From NCBI GenBank assembly GCA_036339735.1, contig JAYZAL010000006.1, forward strand, positions 33,525 to 97,524: a stretch of DNA of 64,000 nt, given 5' to 3'. The DNA comes from Candidatus Poribacteria bacterium (lineage in GTDB: Bacteria > Poribacteria > WGA-4E > UBA9662). A model generated the notes under the pieces. That model was not told where the DNA came from and ran no database searches. It was given only the letters and a program-made list of their open reading frames with translations. Shown here one piece after another: positions 4,714 to 18,254 of this stretch. The position numbers and the translations under genes are program-made. Numbering within the stretch: the stretch's first letter is position 1; each line of letters begins with the position of its first letter.

Positions 4714-6210
4714 TTACTGAGAAATAGTGGCAGTTATCTTGCCTACGGTGCCGGGGGTAAACCCATCAATCACAGTCTCTATAACCTGATAAGAAGGTTC
4801 CCAGAATACAAACAGCAGAACAGTTGGAACGGCAAAGAAGAGTAGAAGTAGTTGGTTACCGAATGTGAAGGTCAACGGTGTCTCTTCATCTGACTTTTCG
4901 AAGAACATTGCTCTTACTATACGTATATAGTAATAAAGTGAAACAGCACTATTCAGAGCAGCAACAACAACTAGCCAATAAAGGCCCCCTTCCACAGCGG
5001 CTGTGAATAAAACCCATTTTCCACTAAACCCCGCCAAAGGCGGTAGCCCAGTCAATGAGAAGAGAAAAAGAGCCATCGAGACAGCTAGTAGCGGTGCCCG
5101 CGAAATTAGGTTACGGTAGTTTTCTATCATTTCACCACCTAATCGATTGGAAACTAGAATAACTACAAAGAAAGCACCTAAATTCATAAAGAGATAAATG
5201 ATCAAGTAAAACAAAATGGCCTTAATACCGGTATCGTTCAATAGTACTGCACCCATCAACAAATATCCACCATGAGCAATACTCGAATAAGCCAATAAGC
5301 GCTTGACGTTATTTTGGGGTAAAGCTGCTAAATTACCAAAAGTCATAGTTAAAGCCGATACAACTGCTAATAATATAGTCCAGTTAGTAGCGCTAAGATC
5401 CGTAATTTGCCCAAACCCAAGATAAAAAATCCGAATCAGCAAAGCGAAACCCGCTGCTTTAGATGCGACAGAAAGGAAAGCTGTTACCGGAATCGGTGCC
5501 CCCTCGTAAACATCAGGTCCCCACATATGGAAAGGTACTGATGCAATTTTATAACCAAGACCGGTCATAACAAACACTGTTGCAACAGTGACTGCCAGAT
5601 GTGAGTTAGGCTCAGCAATAACTTCAGCCAGTCGAGTACCGATTTCTGGAATATTCGCAGTACCAGTTAAACCGAAAATGAGTGATAAACCAAATAGCAT
5701 AGTACCAGAAGCAACTGCACCGTAAATAATGTATTTAAAGGCGGCTTCGCTCGATCGGCGATTATGCGTAAGAAAACCTGCTAAAATATATGACGCTATT
5801 GATACAGTTTCCAAAGCTAGGTAGGCAATCAATAGGTTAGTCGAAGATGCCATCAAAAACATCCCCAAATTAACAGCTATTAGAATTGAGTAGTATTCCC
5901 CTTTTGTATTGGGATCTAATTCGGCAGATTGCATCGAAAAAATGATTGTAGCAGCTGTTGTAACTAAAACAATTACTTTAAAATAAATGGAAAAACCATC
6001 TATCTTGATCATACCATCAAATAAAAATTCAGACGGTAAGCCCGCAGAAAAAATAGCAATAAGTGTCAGGACAATTCCACCCAAAGCAATATACGCCGTT
6101 CCATTATTGTGTTTGCTATCAGGTGTCAAATCATAAATAATAGCAAGCAAAGCCGTTCCGATAACAATCAGTTCAGGAACAAAGTACTGGAGACTATCAA
6201 TACTATTCAC
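4714..6210 (-). CDS. nuoN: NADH-quinone oxidoreductase subunit N
   Basis: EAAFKY, KIASVPFHMWGPDVYEGAP and KRLLAYSSIAH motifs; last gene of the operon. Confidence 0.95.
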   Translation of the reverse strand: MNSIDSLQYFVPELIVIGTALLAIIYDLTPDSKHNNGTAYIALGGIVLTLIAIFSAGLPSEFLFDGMIKIDGFSIYFKVIVLVTTAATIIFSMQSAELDPNTKGEYYSILIAVNLGMFLMASSTNLLIAYLALETVSIASYILAGFLTHNRRSSEAAFKYIIYGAVASGTMLFGLSLIFGLTGTANIPEIGTRLAEVIAEPNSHLAVTVATVFVMTGLGYKIASVPFHMWGPDVYEGAPIPVTAFLSVASKAAGFALLIRIFYLGFGQITDLSATNWTILLAVVSALTMTFGNLAALPQNNVKRLLAYSSIAHGGYLLMGAVLLNDTGIKAILFYLIIYLFMNLGAFFVVILVSNRLGGEMIENYRNLISRAPLLAVSMALFLFSLTGLPPLAGFSGKWVLFTAAVEGGLYWLVVVAALNSAVSLYYYIRIVRAMFFEKSDEETPLTFTFGNQLLLLFFAVPTVLLFVFWEPSYQVIETVIDGFTPGTVGKITATISQ

Positions 6211-6237
6211 TATACAGAGTCCTCAATCACTAATGAC

Positions 6238-7761
6238 TTACGGTAGAATGCCAACGGCCTTGCTACTCGCGTTCACAGCCTTGACTATTGCATCGACATT
6301 TTGGTCAAACATGTCGATAATGAAATGTGGCCAAACACCCAAAAGAATTGTTAAGATACCAAGAGGAAGGAGCGTTGCAATTTCCCGGGCATTGATTTCT
6401 TCAATTTCCTCATATTTAGGATTAAGTTGCCCAAGGAAAATGCGTTGTAATGTCCATAAAAAATAAGCGGCACCAATCACAATCCCAATAGTTGAAAGAA
6501 TCGTTAAAAATTTAGCATTATCAAACGCTCCATCAAAAGCTCCCAGTAAAGATAATGCTTCACCAACAAATCCGCTCAAACCGGGTAAGCCCAAAGAGGC
6601 CATAAAAGCCAATGTAGTAATGCCTGTATAGACGGGCATCTTTGCACCAAGTCCACCAAAACCATTTATATCCCGATGGTGGGCTCGATCATAAATCACA
6701 CCAACCAACAGAAACAGCATCCCACTTATGACTCCATGGTTAAACATTTGTAGGATAGCACCGGTTATACCAGGTTTGTTTAAAGCAGCAATACCCAGTA
6801 TCACAAATCCCATGTGTCCAATAGACGAATAGGCAACCATCTTCTTAAAATCAGTCTGGAAAAGAGCACACAGTGAGCCGTAAATGATATTGACAACCGC
6901 TAGAATCGCTAACCAACTCGCTGAAGCTGCCATACCTTCTGGCAGCATAGTTACGTTAATTCTTACTAAACCATATGTACCCATCTTCAGCAAAATACCA
7001 GCCAGAATAACGCTTATAGCAGTTGGCGCTTGGACGTGAGCATCTGGTAACCAGGTATGGAAAGGAAAAATAGGCACTTTGACAGCAAATCCAACAAAGA
7101 AGCCCAAAAAGACAATCTTTTGGAAATCTGGATCGGCCAAAGGGTGGCCTGCAGTTTGAGCTAACTGTGTTAACTTAATAATATCGAAAGTTCTAGCCCC
7201 AGCTTCCCCACTCTTCAGATAAACAGCAATCATGGCTACGAGCATCAGAACACTTCCGAATAGTGTGTAGAGAAAGAATTTGATCGCCGCATACTCACGA
7301 CGTTCTCCACCCCAAATACCTACTAGGAAGTACATCGGTAACAGCGTCAGTTCGAAGAAAACGTAGAATAGAAAGAGGTCTAGGGCACAAAAGAATCCGA
7401 TCATACCCGTCTCAAGCAGGAGAAACAAAGCCATGTAAGCTTTAACTCCTTTATCAATTTTCCATGAAGCTCCTACGCAGATAGGTCCAAGCAAAGCTGT
7501 TAATAACACCAAAGTCACGCTCAACCCATCAAGGCCAATGTGATAGCTAATGCCAAAACTTTCAATCCAGGGAATTGTTAATTCATGTTGAATACCCGCT
7601 TCCGAATTATCATAATTTGTAAACAGAGAAACCGCGATCAACAACGGAATCAACGTTACAGCAAATGTCAACCACCTAGCGGTGTTATCTTGACCACGAG
7701 GCAAAAGTAAGACCAAGACCATACCAATAAGCGGTATAAAAATCATCCATGTTAGTAGCAT
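6238..7761 (-). CDS. nuoM: NADH-quinone oxidoreductase subunit M
   Basis: AAIKFFLYT, PFHTWLPDAHVQAP and LGLPGLSGFVGE motifs. Confidence 0.95.
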   Translation of the reverse strand: MLLTWMIFIPLIGMVLVLLLPRGQDNTARWLTFAVTLIPLLIAVSLFTNYDNSEAGIQHELTIPWIESFGISYHIGLDGLSVTLVLLTALLGPICVGASWKIDKGVKAYMALFLLLETGMIGFFCALDLFLFYVFFELTLLPMYFLVGIWGGERREYAAIKFFLYTLFGSVLMLVAMIAVYLKSGEAGARTFDIIKLTQLAQTAGHPLADPDFQKIVFLGFFVGFAVKVPIFPFHTWLPDAHVQAPTAISVILAGILLKMGTYGLVRINVTMLPEGMAASASWLAILAVVNIIYGSLCALFQTDFKKMVAYSSIGHMGFVILGIAALNKPGITGAILQMFNHGVISGMLFLLVGVIYDRAHHRDINGFGGLGAKMPVYTGITTLAFMASLGLPGLSGFVGEALSLLGAFDGAFDNAKFLTILSTIGIVIGAAYFLWTLQRIFLGQLNPKYEEIEEINAREIATLLPLGILTILLGVWPHFIIDMFDQNVDAIVKAVNASSKAVGILP

Positions 7762-7821
7762 AAATCACTCAACTCTTTCATTTAGTAGTAATCCTAATAA
7801 ACCATACAATTTACGACATTA

Positions 7822-10053
7822 TTAGCGAGGGAGATAGAGAAATAACAGTATCAAAAGAATTACACCACCTAGAACAAAGGCAAGGTAATTCTGGACTGTA
7901 CCAGTTTGAATACGACGAACTTGGTTTCCAATGGCTCGAATGCCCTTACCAACTACACCTACTACAATTCCATCAATAACGATCATGTCAAACAGACCAA
8001 CAATACCAGCGATAAGAACACGGGTAATCCATGCTACAGCATTAACTATACCATCAACAACATTGATGTCGATCTTACCGAAAACATTAGCCATGCCCAA
8101 TGTAACCCGTTTTACCACCACCCCATTATACAGCTCATCAACGTAGTATTTGTTCCAAAGAATGGTATGAAATGGACCAAGGGCTTTCTCAACGGGGTCT
8201 TCATCAATCGATTTACGCCCGTAAATTAACCATGAGATTAAAATACCCAACCCTGCCACAATAATGGAACAGATCATAGCAATTTTATGAGCTTTATGAT
8301 GAACATCATGATGTGGATCATGATATTTACCATCTGATCCATAATCAGATTTTCCTGCCGCTGCATACAATTCTGTTAAGCTTTCATCGGCTCCGCCATG
8401 TCCATTATGCTCGTTAGTGCTACCATTATGATATTGGTGTGGTGTTTGCACTAACTTATCAAAACTCCAACTAAAACTAATGTTAAACGGTAGGTGAGCG
8501 TGTACGACAGGGAAAGACAATACCATTAAGATAACTAAAGGAATAGCCATTTGACTCGGAGACTCGTGAGCATGATCATACATTTCCTGATTTTTCGGTT
8601 GGCCAAAGAAGGTAAGAAATACAAGCCGGAACATATAGAAAGCAGTGATCATGGCAGCAAAAAGTGCAATGCCGAACAAGATATAATAGTGAATCGTGTA
8701 CTGGCCAGCTTCCATAGCTTTACCCAGAACTCCACCCAAAACTGCATCTTTACTGTAAAAGCCAGAAGTTATGAAAGGCACACCAGAAATGGACAAAGTA
8801 GCAATTAACATCGTCCAAAAAGTGGTCGGCATTTTATGTCTGAGCCCTCCCATATTTCTCATGTCTTGTTCTGGTGGAATACCATCCCTTTCTGCCGGTC
8901 CATGGTGGTGATGATCATCATGCGCATGCCCGTCATCATCGCTATGATGAACATGTAAAGCGTGAATTACACTACCAGATCCAAGAAATAGAAGAGCCTT
9001 AAAGAAAGCGTGAGTGGTTAGATGGAACAAACCTGCCATATAGTTACCAGCCCCAATGGCAAGCATCATGTAACCTAATTGGCTAATTGTCGAATATGCC
9101 AAAACACGCTTTATATCCCAACGGACAATGGCAATAGACGCTGCAAAGATGGCAGTAATCCCACCGATATAAGCAATAAAGAGCGAGGATTCTGGTGTTA
9201 GTATCGGAAACATACGAGCCGTTAAATATACGCCGGCAGCCACCATTGTCGCGGCATGAATTAAAGCACTAACAGGCGTTGGACCTTCCATTGCATCAGG
9301 TAGCCAAGTGTGAAGCGGGAATTGAGCTGATTTACCAATTGGTCCACAGAAAATTAAGATGCCAGCCACTGATAACCACAACATATCGCCGGAACCAAGG
9401 TGTGATACGGCTTCGAATATTCCATGTTCGCCAAACAGCGAAAGTGTTTTAAATTTAGCGAAAAGCATCATCATACCGATAAACATACCAACATCTCCGA
9501 CTCGTGTAGTCAGAAATGCCTTTTTGCAGGCGTCAGCGGCAGAATCTTTCTCGAACCAGAATCCTATTAGTAGATAAGAGCATAATCCCACAAGTTCCCA
9601 ACCAATATAGATTCCCAGTAAATTATCGGAAACGATCAGAAGAAGCATCGAGAAAGAAAACAGGGATAGAAAAGCAAAAAAGCGAGGATATCGAGGATCG
9701 CCGTGCATATATTGTCTTGAGAAAATATGTACAAGACAACTGACTAAAGTAACTACTATCAGCATGATACCAGTTACACTGTCAAGCATAAAACCCATCT
9801 TAAACTTGAGGCTACCGATAGTTATCCAATCGACTACCATAGAATCAATTTGGCCACCAGGCTTTTGCAAGTCAGAATTAGTCAAAATTTGACCAAAAAG
9901 TAGAAGCGAACATACAAAGGCTATTAGCATAGCAGCCGTGGAAATTAGGTCTTGTACAGGGGAACGTCTCCCCATAAGGCCAAAAATCCCAAATATCGCA
10001 AATGCGGCTAACGGACAAAGGAGTATAGTGAAAATTAGCGAAAGAATCGACAT
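7822..10053 (-). CDS. nuoL: NADH-quinone oxidoreductase subunit L, with His-rich insertions
   Basis: KSAQFPLHTWLPDAMEGPTPVSALIHAATMV; HAFFKALLFL. Confidence 0.95.
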   Translation of the reverse strand: MSILSLIFTILLCPLAAFAIFGIFGLMGRRSPVQDLISTAAMLIAFVCSLLLFGQILTNSDLQKPGGQIDSMVVDWITIGSLKFKMGFMLDSVTGIMLIVVTLVSCLVHIFSRQYMHGDPRYPRFFAFLSLFSFSMLLLIVSDNLLGIYIGWELVGLCSYLLIGFWFEKDSAADACKKAFLTTRVGDVGMFIGMMMLFAKFKTLSLFGEHGIFEAVSHLGSGDMLWLSVAGILIFCGPIGKSAQFPLHTWLPDAMEGPTPVSALIHAATMVAAGVYLTARMFPILTPESSLFIAYIGGITAIFAASIAIVRWDIKRVLAYSTISQLGYMMLAIGAGNYMAGLFHLTTHAFFKALLFLGSGSVIHALHVHHSDDDGHAHDDHHHHGPAERDGIPPEQDMRNMGGLRHKMPTTFWTMLIATLSISGVPFITSGFYSKDAVLGGVLGKAMEAGQYTIHYYILFGIALFAAMITAFYMFRLVFLTFFGQPKNQEMYDHAHESPSQMAIPLVILMVLSFPVVHAHLPFNISFSWSFDKLVQTPHQYHNGSTNEHNGHGGADESLTELYAAAGKSDYGSDGKYHDPHHDVHHKAHKIAMICSIIVAGLGILISWLIYGRKSIDEDPVEKALGPFHTILWNKYYVDELYNGVVVKRVTLGMANVFGKIDINVVDGIVNAVAWITRVLIAGIVGLFDMIVIDGIVVGVVGKGIRAIGNQVRRIQTGTVQNYLAFVLGGVILLILLFLYLPR

Positions 10054-10087
10054 ATTTAGGTAAACTCCGTTAGTTATGCGAAGAAGA

Positions 10088-10390
10088 TCAGCCTTTTAAG
10101 GTATCCGTATCGGTAGGGTTGATCGACTGGAATTCGTAATAAATAGACAAAATGATCGACAGAAAAACTGCAGCTTCTGCTGCGGCTAGTACGATACCGA
10201 ACAAAGCTACCATATGTCCTGTAATATCAGCCGTGATAAAGTGAGAGAAAGCTACAAAATTTAGGTTGCAAGAATTCAAAATCAACTCAACACCCATCAA
10301 GATGCTGATTGCATTCCGACGGGTCAGAACAGCGAAAACACCAAGAGAAAACAAAACAATAGAGATATATAAGTAGTGCTGAAGTTGCAT
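10088..10390 (-). CDS. nuoK: NADH-quinone oxidoreductase subunit K
   Basis: RRNAISILMGVELILN and AAAEAAV motifs; 100 aa. Confidence 0.95.
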   Translation of the reverse strand: MQLQHYLYISIVLFSLGVFAVLTRRNAISILMGVELILNSCNLNFVAFSHFITADITGHMVALFGIVLAAAEAAVFLSIILSIYYEFQSINPTDTDTLKG

Positions 10391-10392
10391 GT

Positions 10393-10899
10393 TTATTCTT
10401 TAATTTCCTTGCGTGTAATTAGAACGGCCCCAATCAGTGCGATCAGTAGAATAATGGAAGCGGCTTCAAAGGGAAGCAAGAAATCCCCCATTATTGCTTC
10501 TCCAATAAGCTTTGTGGTTCCTTCTCCAGCATCGAACGGTATTTGGCTAATTTCCCATTCGGTCTGATTAACAACTAATAGAAGAATCGCAAAAATTCCT
10601 GCAGATACAATACCTCCTAGAACGAGCTGTCCTCGTTCCGTTCTCAGATTCATATCTAATTTACCACTAGTCATCATTACACCAAACAAGACTAAAACTA
10701 ATATACCGCCAACATAGACGACAACTTGGGTTGCAGCTAAAAAATCTGCCTTCAGAAACACATACAGGGCTGCCACACAAAACAGCGTAATCATCAACCA
10801 AAAAGCTGCATGAACCAAATTACGAACAGTAACCACACAGACAGCGGATCCGATAGTTATCAGGAAGAAAAACCAAAAAAGCGTCTGGGTCCAATCCAT
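10393..10899 (-). CDS. nuoJ: NADH-quinone oxidoreductase subunit J
   Basis: QVVVYVGGILVL and LPFEAAS motifs. Confidence 0.95.
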   Translation of the reverse strand: MDWTQTLFWFFFLITIGSAVCVVTVRNLVHAAFWLMITLFCVAALYVFLKADFLAATQVVVYVGGILVLVLFGVMMTSGKLDMNLRTERGQLVLGGIVSAGIFAILLLVVNQTEWEISQIPFDAGEGTTKLIGEAIMGDFLLPFEAASIILLIALIGAVLITRKEIKE

Positions 10900-10951
10900 A
10901 TCTTTGTGATACCTTATTACTTTACGTTGATGTCAGTTATTCCACTTTATT

Positions 10952-11617
10952 TCATTTATAAAGGGACGGATCTGCGAACTTATAAATCAAATTTTCTCTA
11001 TCAAATTCAGAATACTCAACACCTTCTAAGTCATCTTTCATCGTCAAACACTCAGTTGGGCAAACTTCCGTACATAAACCGCAGAAGAGGCAGAGCGACA
11101 TATCAATATCAAATCGATCCATCAAAAGCGCAACTTTTTTACGGTCGACAATCCGATCAACTTTATCTCCGCCGATCTTTACGGTTGCACCAGCTGGAAT
11201 GTCCGGGTATGTTGTGCCTTCCGGGTTTATATGCTGAACGGTAAATTGCATATCAGCAGTTATTTCTTTTGGTGGCTTTTTGTCTAGGATACCAACAATT
11301 TTTGTCTGATCCTTTAAGTGAACAACATTCATTGTTTCCCAAGCTTTACCACCCTTCTCTTTTCTAGAATCAATGTAAATACAATCGACAGGACACGCCT
11401 GTGCACATTTTTTGCAAACTATACAATCTTCTACTCGATTGTGAAGTTGACCCCGAAAACCCACTGGGATCTCACGGATATTGTCATTTACTTCAAACTC
11501 GTGTTGGTAAGGATATTGATGTGTAACATTGGGTTTGAACAGTTGGCGCAACGTAATTACCATCCCAAGCAATACGGAGTACACCCCATTATAAATGTTG
11601 AGCATGTATTTGGACAC
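10952..11617 (-). CDS. nuoI: NADH-quinone oxidoreductase subunit I (2x[4Fe-4S]) with a large insertion
   Basis: CIVCKKCAQACP and CLFCGLCTEVCP; 'VTHQYP' N-terminal motif; position in operon. Confidence 0.88.
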   Translation of the reverse strand: MSKYMLNIYNGVYSVLLGMVITLRQLFKPNVTHQYPYQHEFEVNDNIREIPVGFRGQLHNRVEDCIVCKKCAQACPVDCIYIDSRKEKGGKAWETMNVVHLKDQTKIVGILDKKPPKEITADMQFTVQHINPEGTTYPDIPAGATVKIGGDKVDRIVDRKKVALLMDRFDIDMSLCLFCGLCTEVCPTECLTMKDDLEGVEYSEFDRENLIYKFADPSLYK

Positions 11618-11647
11618 AATGATATCCTTTCAGTCGGTTAATTTAAT

Positions 11648-12814
11648 CTAGTTATCTTTTGTAAAACGATATTCCAGTTCAGTTAACTGGCCGCTATCTA
11701 CGCTTACAATTTGATGTCGAGTACCCATTTTCTCATGCCAAAACTCAAGCTCGAATTGGCCATCAGGCAAGCCTGCAATTTCGAATTGACCATCTTCCTG
11801 AGTTACAGTAAAGAACGGATGATCAATAACATGCACCCAACACTTCATCCAAGGATGAATATCACATTTGACAAAAAATAATTCTTCCGCATCGTAAGTG
11901 CGATCAATGGGGTTTCCCCCAACATTGACTGCTTTGTTGAAGGCCGGATTAGCTTCAGATAACGTATGTACGTTGTGTGGGACAACATCGGAGTTTTTGT
12001 AGCTGATCGTTTGGCCTTTTTGAATAGCCAGAACATGTGGCTTGTAAACACACCCATATTGGTCAACTTCAGCGACGTCCGAGGGCGCAGTATAGCTAGC
12101 TGTCGTTGGTAAACCTCTTCGGATACGCACTAAAATGTTCGCGATAGAATTGTCATTACCCAGAACTAAAGTTTCCGACTTCGGGTTACCACCGTGGATA
12201 TCCAAACAACCGGGAGTAGATCCCATATCTACATCTTTAATCTTTGGTATTGGTCCATCCCACAATACTTTCCCTCGAATAATCCCACTACCATTATTTT
12301 GGGTTGCTGTAACCTGAAATACATCACCGTCATGAGCTTCACCGTCATGAGCTTCACCGTCATGAGCTTCACCGTGATAGCTAGATTCTTTTATTTTGGC
12401 GATAGCTTCCTCATTTGCTGCTTGTACTGCTAGCGACGGTTGGCCAAGTGTATCTGCTTCGCCAGTCAAGGTTAAAAAAATCATAATAGTAAAAAATAGG
12501 ACCGTTAGTCCTAAGAAACCATAGATAACTTTACGCTCATCGTTAAGGTGCATAAAAACCAAAGCCACTAATGATGCCTTGACCGAAGCAATCAGCAAAC
12601 CAAGAAATATAGCCACGGGAAAGGGAACATCCAAGTAGGATGCGGCTACCGTAAAAACGGTCAAGACTCCTAGTGCCAAAAAAACGAGTATATACGATTT
12701 AACATGTACATGGTCATGGACTTTTTCGTCAAGGAAAGCATTAATTGCCTCGTCCGTCATTTCCGGATGTTTCGCTTTCAAATAATCAAACTCTTCATTT
12801 CGGCTAGTGGTCAT
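11648..12814 (-). CDS. Fusion: cytochrome c oxidase subunit IV-like 3-TM domain, His-rich linker, and cupredoxin/carboxypeptidase-regulatory-like domain
   Basis: 'KASLVALVFMHL' Cox subunit IV signature; PHNVH...CDIHPWM type-1 Cu site. Start set at ATG 12814 (GGAGGG RBS; overlaps the nuoH stop). Confidence 0.75.
   Translation of the reverse strand: MTTSRNEEFDYLKAKHPEMTDEAINAFLDEKVHDHVHVKSYILVFLALGVLTVFTVAASYLDVPFPVAIFLGLLIASVKASLVALVFMHLNDERKVIYGFLGLTVLFFTIMIFLTLTGEADTLGQPSLAVQAANEEAIAKIKESSYHGEAHDGEAHDGEAHDGDVFQVTATQNNGSGIIRGKVLWDGPIPKIKDVDMGSTPGCLDIHGGNPKSETLVLGNDNSIANILVRIRRGLPTTASYTAPSDVAEVDQYGCVYKPHVLAIQKGQTISYKNSDVVPHNVHTLSEANPAFNKAVNVGGNPIDRTYDAEELFFVKCDIHPWMKCWVHVIDHPFFTVTQEDGQFEIAGLPDGQFELEFWHEKMGTRHQIVSVDSGQLTELEYRFTKDN
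12324..12375. repeat. 15-bp tandem repeat (about 3.5 copies) encoding (GEAHD)n on the minus strand
   Basis: TCACCGTCATGAGCT x3 plus TCACCGT. Confidence 0.9.
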
Positions 12815-14144
12815 GTTTATCCCTCCAAGAAGCCTCCAATTTCCGCAAATTGGTTGCACCAATGTTACCAGCCAAAACAGTCTGATCATGCGGCTTTAGC
12901 TTCCCAAAGCTGTTAAATACGATCCCGAGTAAGGAAATTACAAAGAGGCTAATAATCAGGAAACTAATTCCGATACTGAGTGTCGAATCGGTTCGGAAAA
13001 ATAGCCCCCAGATTCCAGTCCCTAAAATGTTAAAAAACGAAATCGGAATAAGATACTTCCAGCAAAGATTCATTAACTGATCAACCCGAAGACGTGGCAA
13101 GGTCCATCGAACCCACATCATTACAAAGACTAACAAGAATGTTTTACCTACAATAATGAATAAGCCTGGAACAAACTGATCTTCATCTATTATTCCCTGC
13201 CATCCTCCTAAAAATAAGGTGGCTGCAATAGCACAAACAGCAAACACGTTAGCATATTCAGCGATAAAGAAAACTGCGAAGCGCATACCACTATACTCTG
13301 TATGAAACCCCGCAACTAACTCGGACTCGGCTTCCGGCAAGTCGAAAGGCGTTCGATTGACTTCGGCAATCGCAGATAAAAAATAGACAAAAAATGCCAA
13401 AAAAGTGAAGGGAGACCGAAAAATCATCCAATCGAGAATGGATCCTTTTATCTCGATTCCGAGGAAAGTAGCAATGGCTTCTCCCCCCGAAAACACGCCA
13501 TTTTGAGCTGCAACAATGCCTTCCATACTCATAGTCTGTGTCATCATAATTACAGTCAAAATGGATAAACCAATTGGTATTTCATAACTAACCATCTGCG
13601 CTGCTGAGCGCATGGCGCCGAATAGAGACCACTTGCTGTTCGAAGCCCAACCGGCCATGATTACACCAATTGCAATGACAGAAGAAATAGAAATAACATA
13701 AAAAATGCCAATATTGAGGTCGCTAACGAGGACACTCTGGCTGAATGGGATAGCAGCAAATACAGCAAATGAACAAGCAAAAATCAGATAAGGAGCAAAG
13801 CGGAATAGAAGTTTGTCGGCTTGCGGCGGAATTAGGTCTTCCTTGAAAAGAAGCTTTACCCCATCTGCTAGCGTTTGCAATAATCCCCAAGGCCCTACTC
13901 TCATTGGGCCTGTTCGATCCTGAATCCATGCAGAAACTTTTCTTTCCATTAACACAAGGACTAAAGGTATGAGTGGCACCACGGCCACAAAAATTGCGGC
14001 CACAGCAGACATAACCAAGACAGGACCGAGCCAACTGGGCAAAAAACTGAGGCTATGGCTAGCAAAATCCTCAGCCCAATTACTATTTCCACTCTCAACT
14101 ACAGCTGACTCTATTGATATGAAATTTTTAGCTAATGCTACCAT
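12804..14144 (-). CDS. nuoH: NADH-quinone oxidoreductase subunit H
   Basis: ERKVSAWIQDRTGP, NRTPFDLPEAESELVAGFHTEYSG and RWTLPRLRVDQLM motifs. Confidence 0.96.
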   Translation of the reverse strand: MVALAKNFISIESAVVESGNSNWAEDFASHSLSFLPSWLGPVLVMSAVAAIFVAVVPLIPLVLVLMERKVSAWIQDRTGPMRVGPWGLLQTLADGVKLLFKEDLIPPQADKLLFRFAPYLIFACSFAVFAAIPFSQSVLVSDLNIGIFYVISISSVIAIGVIMAGWASNSKWSLFGAMRSAAQMVSYEIPIGLSILTVIMMTQTMSMEGIVAAQNGVFSGGEAIATFLGIEIKGSILDWMIFRSPFTFLAFFVYFLSAIAEVNRTPFDLPEAESELVAGFHTEYSGMRFAVFFIAEYANVFAVCAIAATLFLGGWQGIIDEDQFVPGLFIIVGKTFLLVFVMMWVRWTLPRLRVDQLMNLCWKYLIPISFFNILGTGIWGLFFRTDSTLSIGISFLIISLFVISLLGIVFNSFGKLKPHDQTVLAGNIGATNLRKLEASWRDKHDH

Positions 14145-14187
14145 TTGTATACTTTACTGAACTATAAATTAAATATTAAATTAGGAA

Positions 14188-15375
14188 CTATCGATCTACT
14201 TCACCCATGACAATATCAATGCTACCAATAATCGCAATGATATCCGCCAACATTAACCCCCGACTTAATTCTTGCAAGGCACTCAGTGCTGCGAAACAAG
14301 GCGATTTAACTTTGACGCGAACAGGTTTCACACTTCCATCGCTGATGATGTAGAAACCTAACTCCCCACGAGGTGCTTCACTACGTGAATAAACCGCACC
14401 AGCGGGCGGGCGAATTGCCTTCATATTGGCCATGATCGGACCTTCTGGCCACTCTTTATCCAGCAGTTGACGTAAAATCTTGATTGACTCCTTCATTTCG
14501 TCCATTCTTACCATATAACGGTTCCAGCAATCACCAAGAACAATACCTAGGTCAGGGATATCTTCGCCAATGGGAACATCAAAGTCGAACTGATCATATA
14601 TCGAGTAAGTTTCATCCTTTCTCAAATCCCACTTTCGCCCTGCACCTCTAAGATTTGGGCCACTTGCACCATAACTAATGACCATTTCTTCGTCCATCAC
14701 AGCTACACCTGCGGTCCGTTCGATGAAAATCTTATTGTTGGTCAAAAGTGCATTGTACTCATCTATCTTTGGCTCAAAATAATCCAAAAACTCGCTCACA
14801 TCATCCAAAAAGTCAGGAGGCAAATCTCGAGAAACACCTCCTACTCGGATGTAGTTGTAAGTCAGTCTAGCACCACATAATTTTTCAAAAAGAAAAAGGA
14901 TTTTTTCACGATCACGGAAAGCGTAGAGAAAAGGAGTAAATGCACCGATATCCATTCCATAGGTGCCAAAGGCAAGGAGATGGCTAGCAATACGATTTAG
15001 CTCACCAGCCAAAACACGGAGGTATTCAGCACGCTCGGGTACACCGTCGAATTTGCTTGGGTCTACAGACAGCATCTTTTCAACTGCCATACTGAAACCC
15101 CAATTCTGGTTCATAGCGGCAATATAATCGAGCCGGTCAGTAAAAGGAACAATTTGGTCGTAAGACAAATTCTCAGCATGTTTTTCAAAACACCGGTGAA
15201 GGTAGCCAATATGAGGAATCGCGTCTCGAACGACTTCCCCATCTAACCTCAGCTCTAATTTCAGCACACCATGCGTGCTAGGGTGCTGAGGCCCCATGCT
15301 AACGATCATTTCATCGGAAAAAGGCTTGAGTTCTACAAAACGAGTTTCTTCTGGGGCTGTGCTTTGGGCTAACAT
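14188..15375 (-). CDS. nuoD: NADH-quinone oxidoreductase subunit D
   Basis: MGPQHPSTHGVL, GYLHR and EAPRGELG motifs; C-terminal GEVDR. Confidence 0.96.
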   Translation of the reverse strand: MLAQSTAPEETRFVELKPFSDEMIVSMGPQHPSTHGVLKLELRLDGEVVRDAIPHIGYLHRCFEKHAENLSYDQIVPFTDRLDYIAAMNQNWGFSMAVEKMLSVDPSKFDGVPERAEYLRVLAGELNRIASHLLAFGTYGMDIGAFTPFLYAFRDREKILFLFEKLCGARLTYNYIRVGGVSRDLPPDFLDDVSEFLDYFEPKIDEYNALLTNNKIFIERTAGVAVMDEEMVISYGASGPNLRGAGRKWDLRKDETYSIYDQFDFDVPIGEDIPDLGIVLGDCWNRYMVRMDEMKESIKILRQLLDKEWPEGPIMANMKAIRPPAGAVYSRSEAPRGELGFYIISDGSVKPVRVKVKSPCFAALSALQELSRGLMLADIIAIIGSIDIVMGEVDR

Positions 15376-15401
15376 AGTGCGAACACCTCAAGTAAAGCTA
15401 T

Positions 15402-15887
15402 CTAGTAAGGGACTTTCATCCCACGATACATATCTGGTTCCTGGTAATCTTTACGCATAGGATAACCTTCCCAATCATCTGGCAACAAAATCCGCCTCAA
15501 ATCACTATGGTTATCAAAAACCACACCATACAAGTCATAGATTTCTCTCTCGTGCCAATTGGCTCCCTTCCATAAGTGTTCGACGGTGGAAAGGCGAGGA
15601 TCTTCCTTTGGAACAATTGCTTTTATGACTACCTGGTGAATATGAACCATCGATTGGAAGTGGTAAACGATTTCCATTGTGTCATCTTCTGAAGAATGAT
15701 CAACCCCACTTAAGCATGATAGAGAATCAAAAGCGAGATCTGGATCATGTCGTAGAAATTCACACACAGGGACTACTTTAGAAGAAGGTATAATAATAAA
15801 AGGTTCTAATGTACCTGTGCCGTCAAGAACAATACCATCAACACCAAATTTGTTCTGCAGGCGCTCTAAAACTTCATTCGTGGTCAC
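15402..15887 (-). CDS. nuoC: NADH-quinone oxidoreductase subunit C
   Basis: ANWHEREIYDLYG...LRRILLPDDWEGYPMRKDY. Confidence 0.95.
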   Translation of the reverse strand: MTTNEVLERLQNKFGVDGIVLDGTGTLEPFIIIPSSKVVPVCEFLRHDPDLAFDSLSCLSGVDHSSEDDTMEIVYHFQSMVHIHQVVIKAIVPKEDPRLSTVEHLWKGANWHEREIYDLYGVVFDNHSDLRRILLPDDWEGYPMRKDYQEPDMYRGMKVPY

Positions 15888-15897
15888 CGTATCACCT

Positions 15898-16443
15898 TCA
15901 GGCTGTATGCTTTTTTTGGAGAAGTTTGCGTAAGAATGGAACAGTGGGTGGACCTTCAGTGGTCTGAAGACGAATCTTTTCTTGTAGCTTAAGCAATCCC
16001 TCTATTACGGCCTCAGGACGTGGAGGACAACCAGGTACGTATACATCAACTGGTATTACTCTGTCGACACCCTTCAGCACATGATAGCCGTGTTGCCAGT
16101 ACGGTCCACCGCTAGTAGCACAACTACCCATTGAGATTACATACTTTGGTTCTGCCATTTGCTCGTAGAGCCGAATAACTCTAGTTGCCATCTTTAACGT
16201 AACAGTACCAGAAACAATGATCAGATCAGACTGGCGAGGGGTTGCACGTGGCACACCAGCTCCAAACCGATCGAGATCATAGTTAGAAGCAGCAGTTGCC
16301 ATAAATTCAATGGCGCAGCAGGCAAGCCCAAATGTCATCGGCCATAAAGCTGACGATCTTGCCCAATTGGCTACCGCATCTATAGAGGTAACAATTAAGT
16401 TCTTATCAAAATCTTCGTTGGACAAATTAGATATATCTTTCAT
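15898..16443 (-). CDS. nuoB: NADH-quinone oxidoreductase subunit B
   Basis: [15 protein letters not shown] and PGCPPRPE motifs. Confidence 0.96.
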
Positions 16444-16883
16444 GATTGTCTCTGAGCCTCCAGAGCCGAAGATGGTACGTTTTGATTTCCAAGATCATTA
16501 TTATCATTCGGAACAGATTGTATTTTGCGAACCCACTCTAGATCCCCCTTAGCCCAAACATAAGCTAGACCGACCAAAAGAATAAGAATAAAAATTAGCA
16601 TTTCAACAAAAGCTAACATTCCAATCTGGCGATAAACCACAGCCCAAGGGAAAAGAAAAACGGTTTCGACATCAAAAATCAAAAAAATCAGTGCGATGAC
16701 GTAAAAACGAGTATTGAACTTGATACGGGTATCCCCGATAGGTTCTTCTCCACACTCGTAGGCGATGGATTTCTCTTGGGTAAAGAGACGTGTCTGAGCA
16801 ACACTCGAGATGAGAATATTGAGCAAAATAAAAACAGTTCCAGCAACTAAGAAAACAAGTATATTGGCGAAGTCAAACAGCAT
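16440..16883 (-). CDS. nuoA: NADH-quinone oxidoreductase subunit A
   Basis: YECGEEP and [13 protein letters not shown] motifs. ATG 16883 chosen; TTG 16892 is an alternative. Confidence 0.93.
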
Positions 16884-16948
16884 GGAGCACAAACCTCAAT
16901 GAGTTATCCTAATCCGATTCATCGCGTAGGCCGCCCTGAATCCGGCAA

Positions 16949-17006: not shown

Positions 17007-18254
17007 TTAATCAAATTCACCACCACATTTCCTGCACAAAATGTAAAATTGTATATCTTCCTTCAGAGCATACTGGATCATTAGCTCAACAGCTTCATCT
17101 GGCAGATCTTCATCGCATTTGGGACAACGATAAAGAGAACGGTTATTGTCATAGGGTATCTGTTCAACTTTACCAGTAAAATCCTGCCAAAAAGTAAATT
17201 CCCAGGGCAACTCATTTTTTGTTTTAACAGAAATCTCATAGGCATGCCTAATAAAAGTCTGGCAGTCAGCGAAAGAGATAGTGGAAAAAAATTGATTAGT
17301 AAGTGCATTCAACATCAAAAAAGCCTGAAGTTCAACGAAGTGTGTCCATCGATTAACCGAATTTCCATCAGCCCAGCAACGAATATAGCGGGTCTCGATA
17401 GGATTGAAAACAAACGTTTTTCCGTCTCTGTTTTCTGCATACTCGCCATCATATTGGCTATCAAAAATAGTGATCTCTTCACCACTAAATTTATTTTCTA
17501 AAGAAACTGCAATCTTGTTATGATGATAAGTTCGACCATCAGCCCAGTAATGCCAAAGCTTGATAGTATTAATCAACATCGGTTGACCGAGGTCCACCGT
17601 TACCTGAGTAGCGTCAAGTAAATCTTCAGGTTTGGCGCTTTCACCTGTGTCGCCATCTGTCAAATTCCAGCGACCTGCATAGTCGCTATTGGTTTCAACC
17701 CGCTTGTTTAAGGCTAAATTTTCTGTTTTTAACCTGTTGTTCGTAAGTGGCTGGCCAAAATCATTTGAAGCCATATAGCCACTCAGGTATTGACTGTACA
17801 ACTCACTAATAGGTAGAGACAATTGGTAGGACTTTGCTACACTTTGGCAGCAACGATCCAATTCTGCAGAACTCAGGTTAGCGACGACAAAACAATCTCT
17901 GACACCTCGTTTCCAAAAATCAAGTAAGAGAAACATGGCACGTAAATTCCCATCAGGTCGACGACGAATGATCACCGCTATTCGAAGACCGGTATCTGTA
18001 GAATAACTAATTAAACAACTGTGGAGTGGGTAATCAGGAAATGGGCCAAATTTACTCTGTTTGATCAGAGGTTTGTAGTGTTTGCAGTTGGCATCACAAC
18101 CAGGGATTTTGGCCCGTTTGGCCTGACAACAACTAGGGCATATAATGACACCGTTTAGTGCAGGACAAATACGCTTGGCATTATCAGATCTACAGGTCCG
18201 GCAACGCTGTTTTTTTGGTCGTCTTCGGCGATACCCAAGCCTCAATCTTGCCAT
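17007..18254 (-). CDS. Hypothetical protein: N-terminal Cys-rich zinc finger, inserted discoidin (F5/8 type C-like) domain, C-terminal zinc ribbon
   Basis: CRTC/CPSCC/C/C cluster; NLALNK..VDLGQ..WHYWADGRTY..TRYIR..FVELQAF; CPKC...CRKC. Confidence 0.65.
   Translation of the reverse strand: MARLRLGYRRRRPKKQRCRTCRSDNAKRICPALNGVIICPSCCQAKRAKIPGCDANCKHYKPLIKQSKFGPFPDYPLHSCLISYSTDTGLRIAVIIRRRPDGNLRAMFLLLDFWKRGVRDCFVVANLSSAELDRCCQSVAKSYQLSLPISELYSQYLSGYMASNDFGQPLTNNRLKTENLALNKRVETNSDYAGRWNLTDGDTGESAKPEDLLDATQVTVDLGQPMLINTIKLWHYWADGRTYHHNKIAVSLENKFSGEEITIFDSQYDGEYAENRDGKTFVFNPIETRYIRCWADGNSVNRWTHFVELQAFLMLNALTNQFFSTISFADCQTFIRHAYEISVKTKNELPWEFTFWQDFTGKVEQIPYDNNRSLYRCPKCDEDLPDEAVELMIQYALKEDIQFYILCRKCGGEFD

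Follow-up and report, generated by a model that had tools for sequence, protein, structure and literature searches.

Within the complex I operon of a Candidatus Poribacteria bacterium lies a gene that probably encodes a relocated subunit IV of the organism's single aa3-type oxidase, carrying a tethered cupredoxin likely to donate electrons to CuA. We found this gene, which we call X, in a stretch of 64,000 nucleotides (nt) of GenBank assembly GCA_036339735.1 (contig JAYZAL010000006.1; hereafter the window). Its product of 388 amino acids (aa) consists of three transmembrane (TM) helices, a linker and a soluble blue copper module, and it is encoded on the reverse strand between nuoH and nuoI (Table 1). 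A first-pass annotation made from the DNA letters of the window had the coordinates and gene order right, including the 11-nt overlap with nuoH, the GGAGGG ribosome-binding site and the 30-nt gap before nuoI, and had read X as an extra complex I subunit or as part of a new supercomplex of complex I and an oxidase. The genome to which the window belongs (G000) is a draft of 107 contigs and is 92% complete.

The N-terminal part of X belongs to the oxidase subunit IV family, as first annotated. COX4_pro (PF03626) matched residues 42–111 with 42.2 bits against a Pfam cut-off of 28.9, and the caa(3)-type oxidase subunit IV family of NCBIfam (caa3_sub_IV, TIGR02229) matched with 43.9 bits against a cut-off of 37.25. 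An AlphaFold2 model of X (58 sequences, mean pLDDT 85.5) has helices at residues 21–59, 65–90 and 94–117, and also at 128–144. The same Pfam and NCBIfam scans returned no complex I family, in line with the earlier statement that neither domain of X is a known complex I subunit. In the model, residues 146–162 are disordered and are followed by a β-rich module at residues 177–385; pLDDT exceeds 90 in the C-terminal half. The disordered linker contains the (GEAHD)n repeat that had been noted before, encoded by a perfect 15-nt tandem repeat. Variants that are otherwise 98–100% identical, from different assemblies, have 2, 3 or 4 GEAHD units (383, 388 or 393 aa).

The soluble half has a cupredoxin fold. 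Copper-bind (PF00127) matched residues 249–326 with 24.2 bits (Pfam cut-off 21.2), and a lipoprotein paralogue encoded elsewhere in the genome scored 28.1. A CarboxypepD_reg match to the tail (residues 335–381) reached 23.6 bits and stayed under its cut-off of 32.3. The first strand of this β-sandwich comes before the cupredoxin and the remaining strands come after, so that the cupredoxin is inserted into the sandwich. Foldseek against the PDB returned plastocyanin, amicyanin, pseudoazurin and a Nitrosopumilus cupredoxin with target-normalised TM-scores of 0.6–0.75 and E-values of 1e-5 to 1e-7. The motifs NSDVVPHNVH and KCDIHPWM are both found in X, and phmmer aligned its VVPHNVH and KCDIHPWMK with AMPHNVH and HCTPHPFMR of amicyanin. 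The copper site had been called amicyanin-type before: the spacing of the ligand loop and the motif alignment agree with this, whereas X fails the amicyanin equivalog TIGR02657 of NCBIfam, with 18.9 bits against a cut-off of 110.2.

The copper ligands are kept in 220 to 224 of 224 relatives. An extra pair of cysteines is nearly as constant in this set (Cys203 in 218, Cys255 in 222). Among relatives all Cu ligands and 150 or more residues are invariant, and the reading frame of X is intact. From these residues we infer that the soluble domain binds copper at a type-1 site. Lysine and arginine residues precede the first TM helix and occupy the loop at residues 90–95, and the tail after the third helix is acidic; with this charge distribution and a three-helix anchor, the copper domain would face the periplasm, an orientation that had been proposed before and that the AlphaFold2 model also supports.

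X is the sole COX4_pro match in its genome, which has one COX1; no cytochrome bd was found in this 92%-complete assembly. The single cox operon lies on contig C1 and runs from a multihaem cytochrome c (L003 11388–14528), a 268-aa membrane protein and a Cys-rich 149-aa protein to a 268-aa lipoprotein cupredoxin, COX1, COX3, two small membrane proteins of 100 and 88 aa (TM100 and TM88), COX2 (L003 5627–6424) and SCO1. It has no subunit IV gene at the point where 60 or more related clusters have one, so that the operon does lack its own subunit IV, as the first-pass annotation had thought worth checking. COX2 has a normal CuA site and no cytochrome c domain. The lipoprotein cupredoxin (L003 9293–10099), which has a lipobox signal peptide, is 51–55% identical to the soluble half of X and shares its architecture and ligands; JGI names several entries of this stand-alone protein 'plastocyanin'. 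A structure prediction of COX1 and COX3 with residues 28–125 of X supports neither side, as a control with COX1 replaced scored too close.

TM100 and TM88 (L003 6424–6989, reverse strand), which lie between COX3/COX4 and COX2, have no Pfam match and are kept across many phyla; the 88-aa protein carries a CAVCFGD motif. Neither the Cys-rich 149-aa protein nor the 268-aa polytopic membrane protein (L003 10107–11362, reverse strand) has a Pfam match; both accompany the multihaem cytochrome c and the cupredoxin, not only in the family but also in some loci of Planctomycetota and Omnitrophota.

The position of X was then compared across its relatives. The GTDB family (f1) comprises seven genomes in three genera, including that of the window. 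X lies between nuoH and nuoI in four of the seven (G000, G001, G002 and G004, from two genera), with an identity of 100–68%, and the same order recurs in a metagenome locus (L142); the arrangement is thus shared with related genomes, where the first-pass annotation had allowed that it might be unique to one assembly. The cox operons seen in three of these four genomes (G000, G001, G004), and also in locus L065, are without subunit IV. The third genus (G003, G005, G006) has an orthologous fusion of 401–403 aa. In G003 and G005 the cox operon has it after COX3 and before TM100, an order repeated in loci L061, L062 and L064; X itself, at nuoH/nuoI, does not share this link to COX3. For G006 a same-frame match to the fusion was seen, and loci L061 and L062, with the same order, extend the cox placement to a third genome. 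All three genomes of this genus have an orthologous nuo operon in which nuoI comes immediately after nuoH, with no X.

In the rest of the phylum, subunit IV is encoded on its own as a protein of 106–222 aa (176 genomes searched, 149 with a match). COX4_pro frames of at least 350 aa were confined, among the same 176, to the seven family genomes and one artefact, a 372-aa frame in G011 that is a stop-to-stop read-through of a 110-aa stand-alone gene. In G009 (L038), the only cluster of the phylum outside the family whose gene order was determined, the subunit IV gene follows COX3, and in other genomes of the phylum it lies ~10 kb from cupredoxin genes. Because subunit IV genes of the phylum outside the family associate with cox or cupredoxin genes, the position in the cox operon is most likely ancestral. 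The nuo position is then a derived relocation, since the orthologue of the sister genus stands in the cox operon and nuoH and nuoI are adjacent there; judged from these gene orders, X most likely moved in the ancestor of the two nuo-type genera.

Three other features were seen in the family genomes. The sister genus has a second, divergent nuo-like cluster (L046, L047 and L048; G006, G003 and G005) whose NuoH is ~42–46% identical; here nuoJ-K-L come next after nuoH, and the interval showed no match to NuoI. In the sister genus COX3 is 301–303 aa long (L034 9467–10378 and L037 8861–9763, both reverse strand) versus 199 aa elsewhere, owing to an internal insertion of ~100 aa. G001 has a third cupredoxin copy (L140 3698–4492, forward strand, contig C6), which is 63% identical to the stand-alone copy; no cox gene was found within the 8 kb fetched around it.

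When the cupredoxin modules are placed in a tree, the two nuo-type genera have fused copies that group as sister to their own free-standing ones (support 100); in the third genus, too, fused and stand-alone copies are sisters (support 86). A single origin of the seven fused cupredoxins as one clade was rejected by the approximately unbiased (AU) test (p = 0.0003), with the group named after the tree had been seen. By this phylogeny, there were either two fusion events or an exchange of sequence by gene conversion between fused and free copies, which are 3 kb apart; the AU test cannot tell independent fusions from conversion with the neighbouring paralogue. Four more cluster representatives of 353–393 aa (P0076, P0080, P0095 and P0131) combine COX4_pro with a cupredoxin of this family. 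Three carry the JGI name caa(3)-type oxidase subunit IV, and a metagenome-assembled genome labelled Planctomycetota is the source of one. They form a separate clade (support 99) with long branches, so that COX4–cupredoxin fusions occupy at least three separate clades on the cupredoxin tree. Recurrent fusion argues for a functional link between the carrier and subunit IV. A metagenome scan aimed at the other fused clade gave one fused locus, L142, which is arranged in nuo as in the window.

The cupredoxin family to which X belongs is large. A library clustered at 50% contains 13,291 representatives of it with E ≤ 0.001, and 812 under the stricter limit of E ≤ 1e-30. Of 80 genome loci, 62 have the cupredoxin gene immediately upstream of COX1 and on its strand, 3 have it close to cox genes that are arranged differently and 5 have it fused; 9 have no cox gene in view and 1 has no room downstream. 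The corresponding numbers for 80 metagenome loci are 39 upstream of COX1, 14 in another cox order, 1 fused, 13 with no cox gene and 13 with no room. The genome loci come from Acidobacteriota, Fidelibacterota/Marinimicrobia, Omnitrophota, Planctomycetota, Verrucomicrobiota, Binatota, Gemmatimonadota and Spirochaetota, among others. The usual order is cupredoxin-COX1-COX3-COX4-(100 aa)-(88 aa)-COX2. In G003, genes for a HEAT-repeat protein, a Rieske protein, cytochrome b and a multihaem cytochrome c precede the cupredoxin–cox cluster, and in one Acidobacteriota locus a large polytopic membrane open reading frame (ORF) precedes it. An apparent fusion in the Acidobacteriota locus L080 (match 54–384) was an artefact of the upstream membrane ORF; the cupredoxin (238 aa) and COX4 (102 aa) are separate genes there. 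Because the gene sits between a quinol-oxidising complex that bears cytochrome c and the oxidase, the family cupredoxin is most simply read, by analogy with known type-1 sites, as an electron carrier to CuA.

We propose the following model. X would be the caa3-type subunit IV of the sole aa3-type haem-copper oxidase, to which a second copy of the oxidase-associated blue copper protein became fused. Its three helices would be its membrane anchor and presumably pack on COX3/COX1, as those of other subunit IV proteins do, and the flexible, acidic, His-rich linker would hold the type-1-copper cupredoxin in the periplasm. There the cupredoxin would most likely transfer single electrons, received from the multihaem cytochrome c that belongs to the Rieske/cytochrome b complex, to CuA of COX2, working beside its lipid-anchored paralogue; the direction of flow is assigned by analogy. 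X would then be the copper counterpart of the cytochrome c that caa3 oxidases carry on subunit II. The gene would have stood in the cox operon between COX3 and COX2 before it moved to the nuoH/nuoI junction.

Several points weigh against this model. We infer from sequence that X is a member of the oxidase complex, and its role as an electron donor is drawn by analogy. With a normal CuA site and a lipoprotein cupredoxin already present, it is not evident why a second carrier, and a tethered one, would be required. X overlaps complex I genes, and its position is kept across two genera at 68% protein identity, which could mean more than a neutral relocation. Copper handling would likewise be consistent with the abundance of His, Asp and Glu in the linker and with the SCO gene nearby. 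As the assembly is 92% complete, a second subunit IV may sit on unassembled DNA, and the gene context of the fusion comes from loci outside the clade of the four additional representatives. Contigs from RNA libraries do not prove a single transcript, and DNA carry-over may contribute to them.

One alternative is a role in copper handling. Here X would still be oxidase subunit IV, and the copper domain would serve copper acquisition or delivery, assembly of CuA/CuB, or redox or oxygen sensing in place of electron transfer, with the His-rich repeat capturing metal. The composition of the linker, its variable number of repeats, the SCO1/SenC gene at the end of the cox operon and the apparent redundancy with the lipoprotein paralogue all fit such a role. 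We regard it as unlikely, since the His-Cys-His-Met set in a cupredoxin fold is that of electron-transfer type-1 sites, from which known Cu chaperones differ. The placement of the family between a quinol oxidase complex containing cytochrome c and COX1 fits a carrier, and the sequence of the His-rich stretch is not kept between genera.

The location of X raises the question of whether it works in complex I. It could be an accessory subunit of a complex I without NuoEFG, or a bridge in a supercomplex of complexes I and IV, with its helices docked on NuoH/A/J and the cupredoxin wiring the periplasmic side. Conservation of the nuo position in four genomes of two genera and in many marine assemblies speaks for this, as do the overlap with nuoH and the gene's own ribosome-binding site. 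RNA-library contigs bridge both junctions: nuoH/X in X15 record 6 (12723–13638) and X19 record 27 (12744–12902), and X/nuoI in X18 record 18 (11337–11787) and X15 record 2 (11587–12040, with 31 nt on the nuoI side). X is covered by contigs of four RNA libraries from four studies, and 0.39–0.64 of the sampled words of a 3.3-kb stretch around it were present in 6 RNA runs. X is thus probably co-transcribed and translationally coupled with the complex I genes. A role in complex I nevertheless seems quite improbable to us, and the first-pass reading is not supported: the orthologue of the sister genus stands in the cox operon while nuoH and nuoI are adjacent there, the helices of X belong to the oxidase subunit IV family, and the cox operon is without subunit IV exactly where the gene sits in nuo. 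We know of no periplasmic redox site in complex I that a cupredoxin could serve.

The move into the nuo operon might itself have been selected. X made and inserted together with NuoH could nucleate assembly of complex I with complex IV, with the copper domain helping to close the electron path. We give this idea only a slim chance; if true, it would mean a bacterial respirasome organised by a shared small subunit. We give almost no credence to an assembly chimera, or to a decaying insertion without function, as the source of the arrangement: the genome is a draft in 107 contigs, but the same order occurs in three other genomes and a metagenome contig, 0.76–0.96 of the sampled words of the 3.3-kb stretch were present in 14 DNA runs from at least 9 studies, the frame is intact with its ligands and 150 or more residues invariant among relatives, and X is present in RNA libraries.

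The features of the X locus are collected in Table 1. The ATG of X is at 12814–12812 and its last coding-strand position, within the stop codon, is 11648, as given by the ORF listing and the translation. The longest frame starts farther upstream and would give 413 aa; we prefer the 388-aa start because homologues begin at the MTT.../MAS... start.

Table 1. Gene X, its parts and its neighbours in the window (positions count from the first nucleotide of the window; residues are those of the 388-aa product).
Feature	Position	Strand	Remarks
Gene X	11648..12814	(-)	388-aa COX4_pro + linker + cupredoxin fusion; coordinates include the stop codon
nuoH, upstream neighbour of X	12804..14144	(-)	ORF listing, Pfam
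nuoI, downstream neighbour of X	10952..11617	(-)	ORF listing, Pfam; starts 30 nt past X
nuoH/X overlap, 11 nt	12804..12814	(-)	nuoH stop TAG at 12806-12804 against the start of X
GGAGGG ribosome-binding site of X	12821..12826	(-)	Read from the sequence; 6 nt 5' of the ATG, within the 3' end of nuoH
Operon nuoA-B-C-D-H-[X]-I-J-K-L-M-N	4714..16892	(-)	nuoE, nuoF and nuoG absent from the operon
Three TM helices, residues ~40-117	12464..12697	(-)	Pfam, NCBIfam, AlphaFold2; motif IASVKASLVALVFMHLN at residues 75-91
15-nt tandem repeat coding for (GEAHD)n	12324..12375	(-)	3.5 copies, 100% matches, in the disordered linker
Soluble module, residues 166-388	11651..12319	(-)	Predicted to face the periplasm (model); paralogue of the lipoprotein cupredoxin upstream of COX1
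Cupredoxin core, residues ~248-330	11825..12073	(-)	Plastocyanin/amicyanin/pseudoazurin fold
His280 codon, first putative Cu ligand, in VVPHNVH	11975..11977	(-)	His in 220/224 family members
Ligand loop Cys317-x2-His320-x2-Met323 (CDIHPWM)	11846..11866	(-)	Cys in 221, His in 224, Met in 221 of 224
CarboxypepD_reg-like β-sandwich tail, residues 331-385	11660..11824	(-)	First strand, 177-186, precedes the cupredoxin

NuoH and NuoI were named by Pfam and the remaining Nuo subunits from their ORF translations only. The first-pass annotation had described the complex as NuoEFG-less. This is correct for the nuo operon but not for the genome, in which a fused NuoE–NuoF-like gene of 564 aa lies away from the operon on another contig (C101; L223 898–2592, reverse strand). 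Its product has a 2Fe-2S thioredoxin-like, a 51K FMN and an NADH_4Fe-4S domain, and the gene adjoins one resembling 3-hydroxyisobutyrate dehydrogenase.

Other genes of the operon showed features worth recording. NuoI (10952–11617, reverse strand) is 221 aa long, with 4Fe-4S motifs at residues 63–87 and 170–192; these are ~80 residues apart, a much wider spacing than in a textbook NuoI, and the sister genus matches the full NuoI length. NuoL (7822–10053, reverse strand; 743 aa) has His/Asp-rich inserts, e.g. HHSDDDGHAHDDHHHHG, and COX1 of the cox operon (L003 7516–9234, reverse strand) begins with a His-rich tail, MAEHHHDHNHHHDEG. His-rich acidic segments thus recur in respiratory membrane proteins of this organism, namely in the GEAHD linker of X, NuoL and COX1. 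Directly upstream of nuoA, a 415-aa ORF (17007–18254, reverse strand) has Cys-rich N- and C-terminal ends with CxxC pairs.

X can be regarded as a 'Rosetta stone' fusion that provides a physical link between a widespread cupredoxin family and the aa3 oxidase. It suggests that copper proteins stand in for soluble cytochrome c in the step from complex III-type enzymes to the oxidase in Acidobacteriota, Fidelibacterota, Planctomycetota and related groups. An oxidase subunit gene within a complex I operon is also unusual and offers a testable case of cross-complex co-regulation or co-assembly, and the lineage that carries X is abundant, uncultured and marine. In a full-text literature search, whose coverage excluded most subscription journals, we found no description of a COX4–cupredoxin fusion, of this cupredoxin family or of a gene intervening between nuoH and nuoI. 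As read here, X adds a variant to the known tethered-carrier oxidases.

Among known systems, the fold of X is that of amicyanin, plastocyanin and pseudoazurin (PF00127), and its His...Cys-x2-His-x2-Met pattern aligns with amicyanin. Unlike these, the cupredoxin of X is embedded in a CarboxypepD_reg-like domain, has the extra Cys203/Cys255 pair, is tethered to the membrane and occurs in the context of an oxidase and not of methylamine dehydrogenase. Its stand-alone lipoprotein paralogue differs in having a lipobox anchor instead of subunit IV and in being encoded upstream of COX1. In caa3 oxidases (Thermus, Bacillus, Rhodothermus), the donor cytochrome c is fused to subunit II. X resembles these enzymes in that an A-type oxidase would have a one-electron donor linked covalently to one of its membrane subunits, and it matches TIGR02229, which is named for them; it differs in that the carrier would be a type-1 copper protein and not a haem c, and in that it is attached to subunit IV and not to subunit II. 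Placing the carrier on subunit IV thus departs from the caa3 solution and has apparently evolved more than once.

Auracyanin of Chloroflexus and Roseiflexus is a membrane-anchored blue copper protein that acts as periplasmic electron acceptor of alternative complex III (PMC10873879). By description and not by sequence, it resembles X as a membrane-anchored cupredoxin between a quinol-oxidising complex and a terminal acceptor; it is a separate protein that is not fused to an oxidase. A fusion of a blue copper carrier to a small accessory subunit of a terminal oxidase is found in Halobacterium salinarum, where OE_4073R, a halocyanin/CbaD fusion, is listed as uncharacterized and is taken by the authors as support for a link between halocyanin and the oxidase (PMC8305020). 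As far as that description goes, this protein is archaeal and belongs with a ba3-type oxidase, CbaD is not COX4_pro, the two domains stand in the opposite order with the halocyanin N-terminal, and there is no complex I context, whereas X is bacterial, has the COX4_pro domain of an A-type oxidase and a CarboxypepD_reg-embedded cupredoxin, and lies inside a complex I operon. By analogy, the halocyanin/CbaD fusion is the closest precedent for the copper-carrier fusion seen in X, and the caa3 oxidase is the nearest concept.

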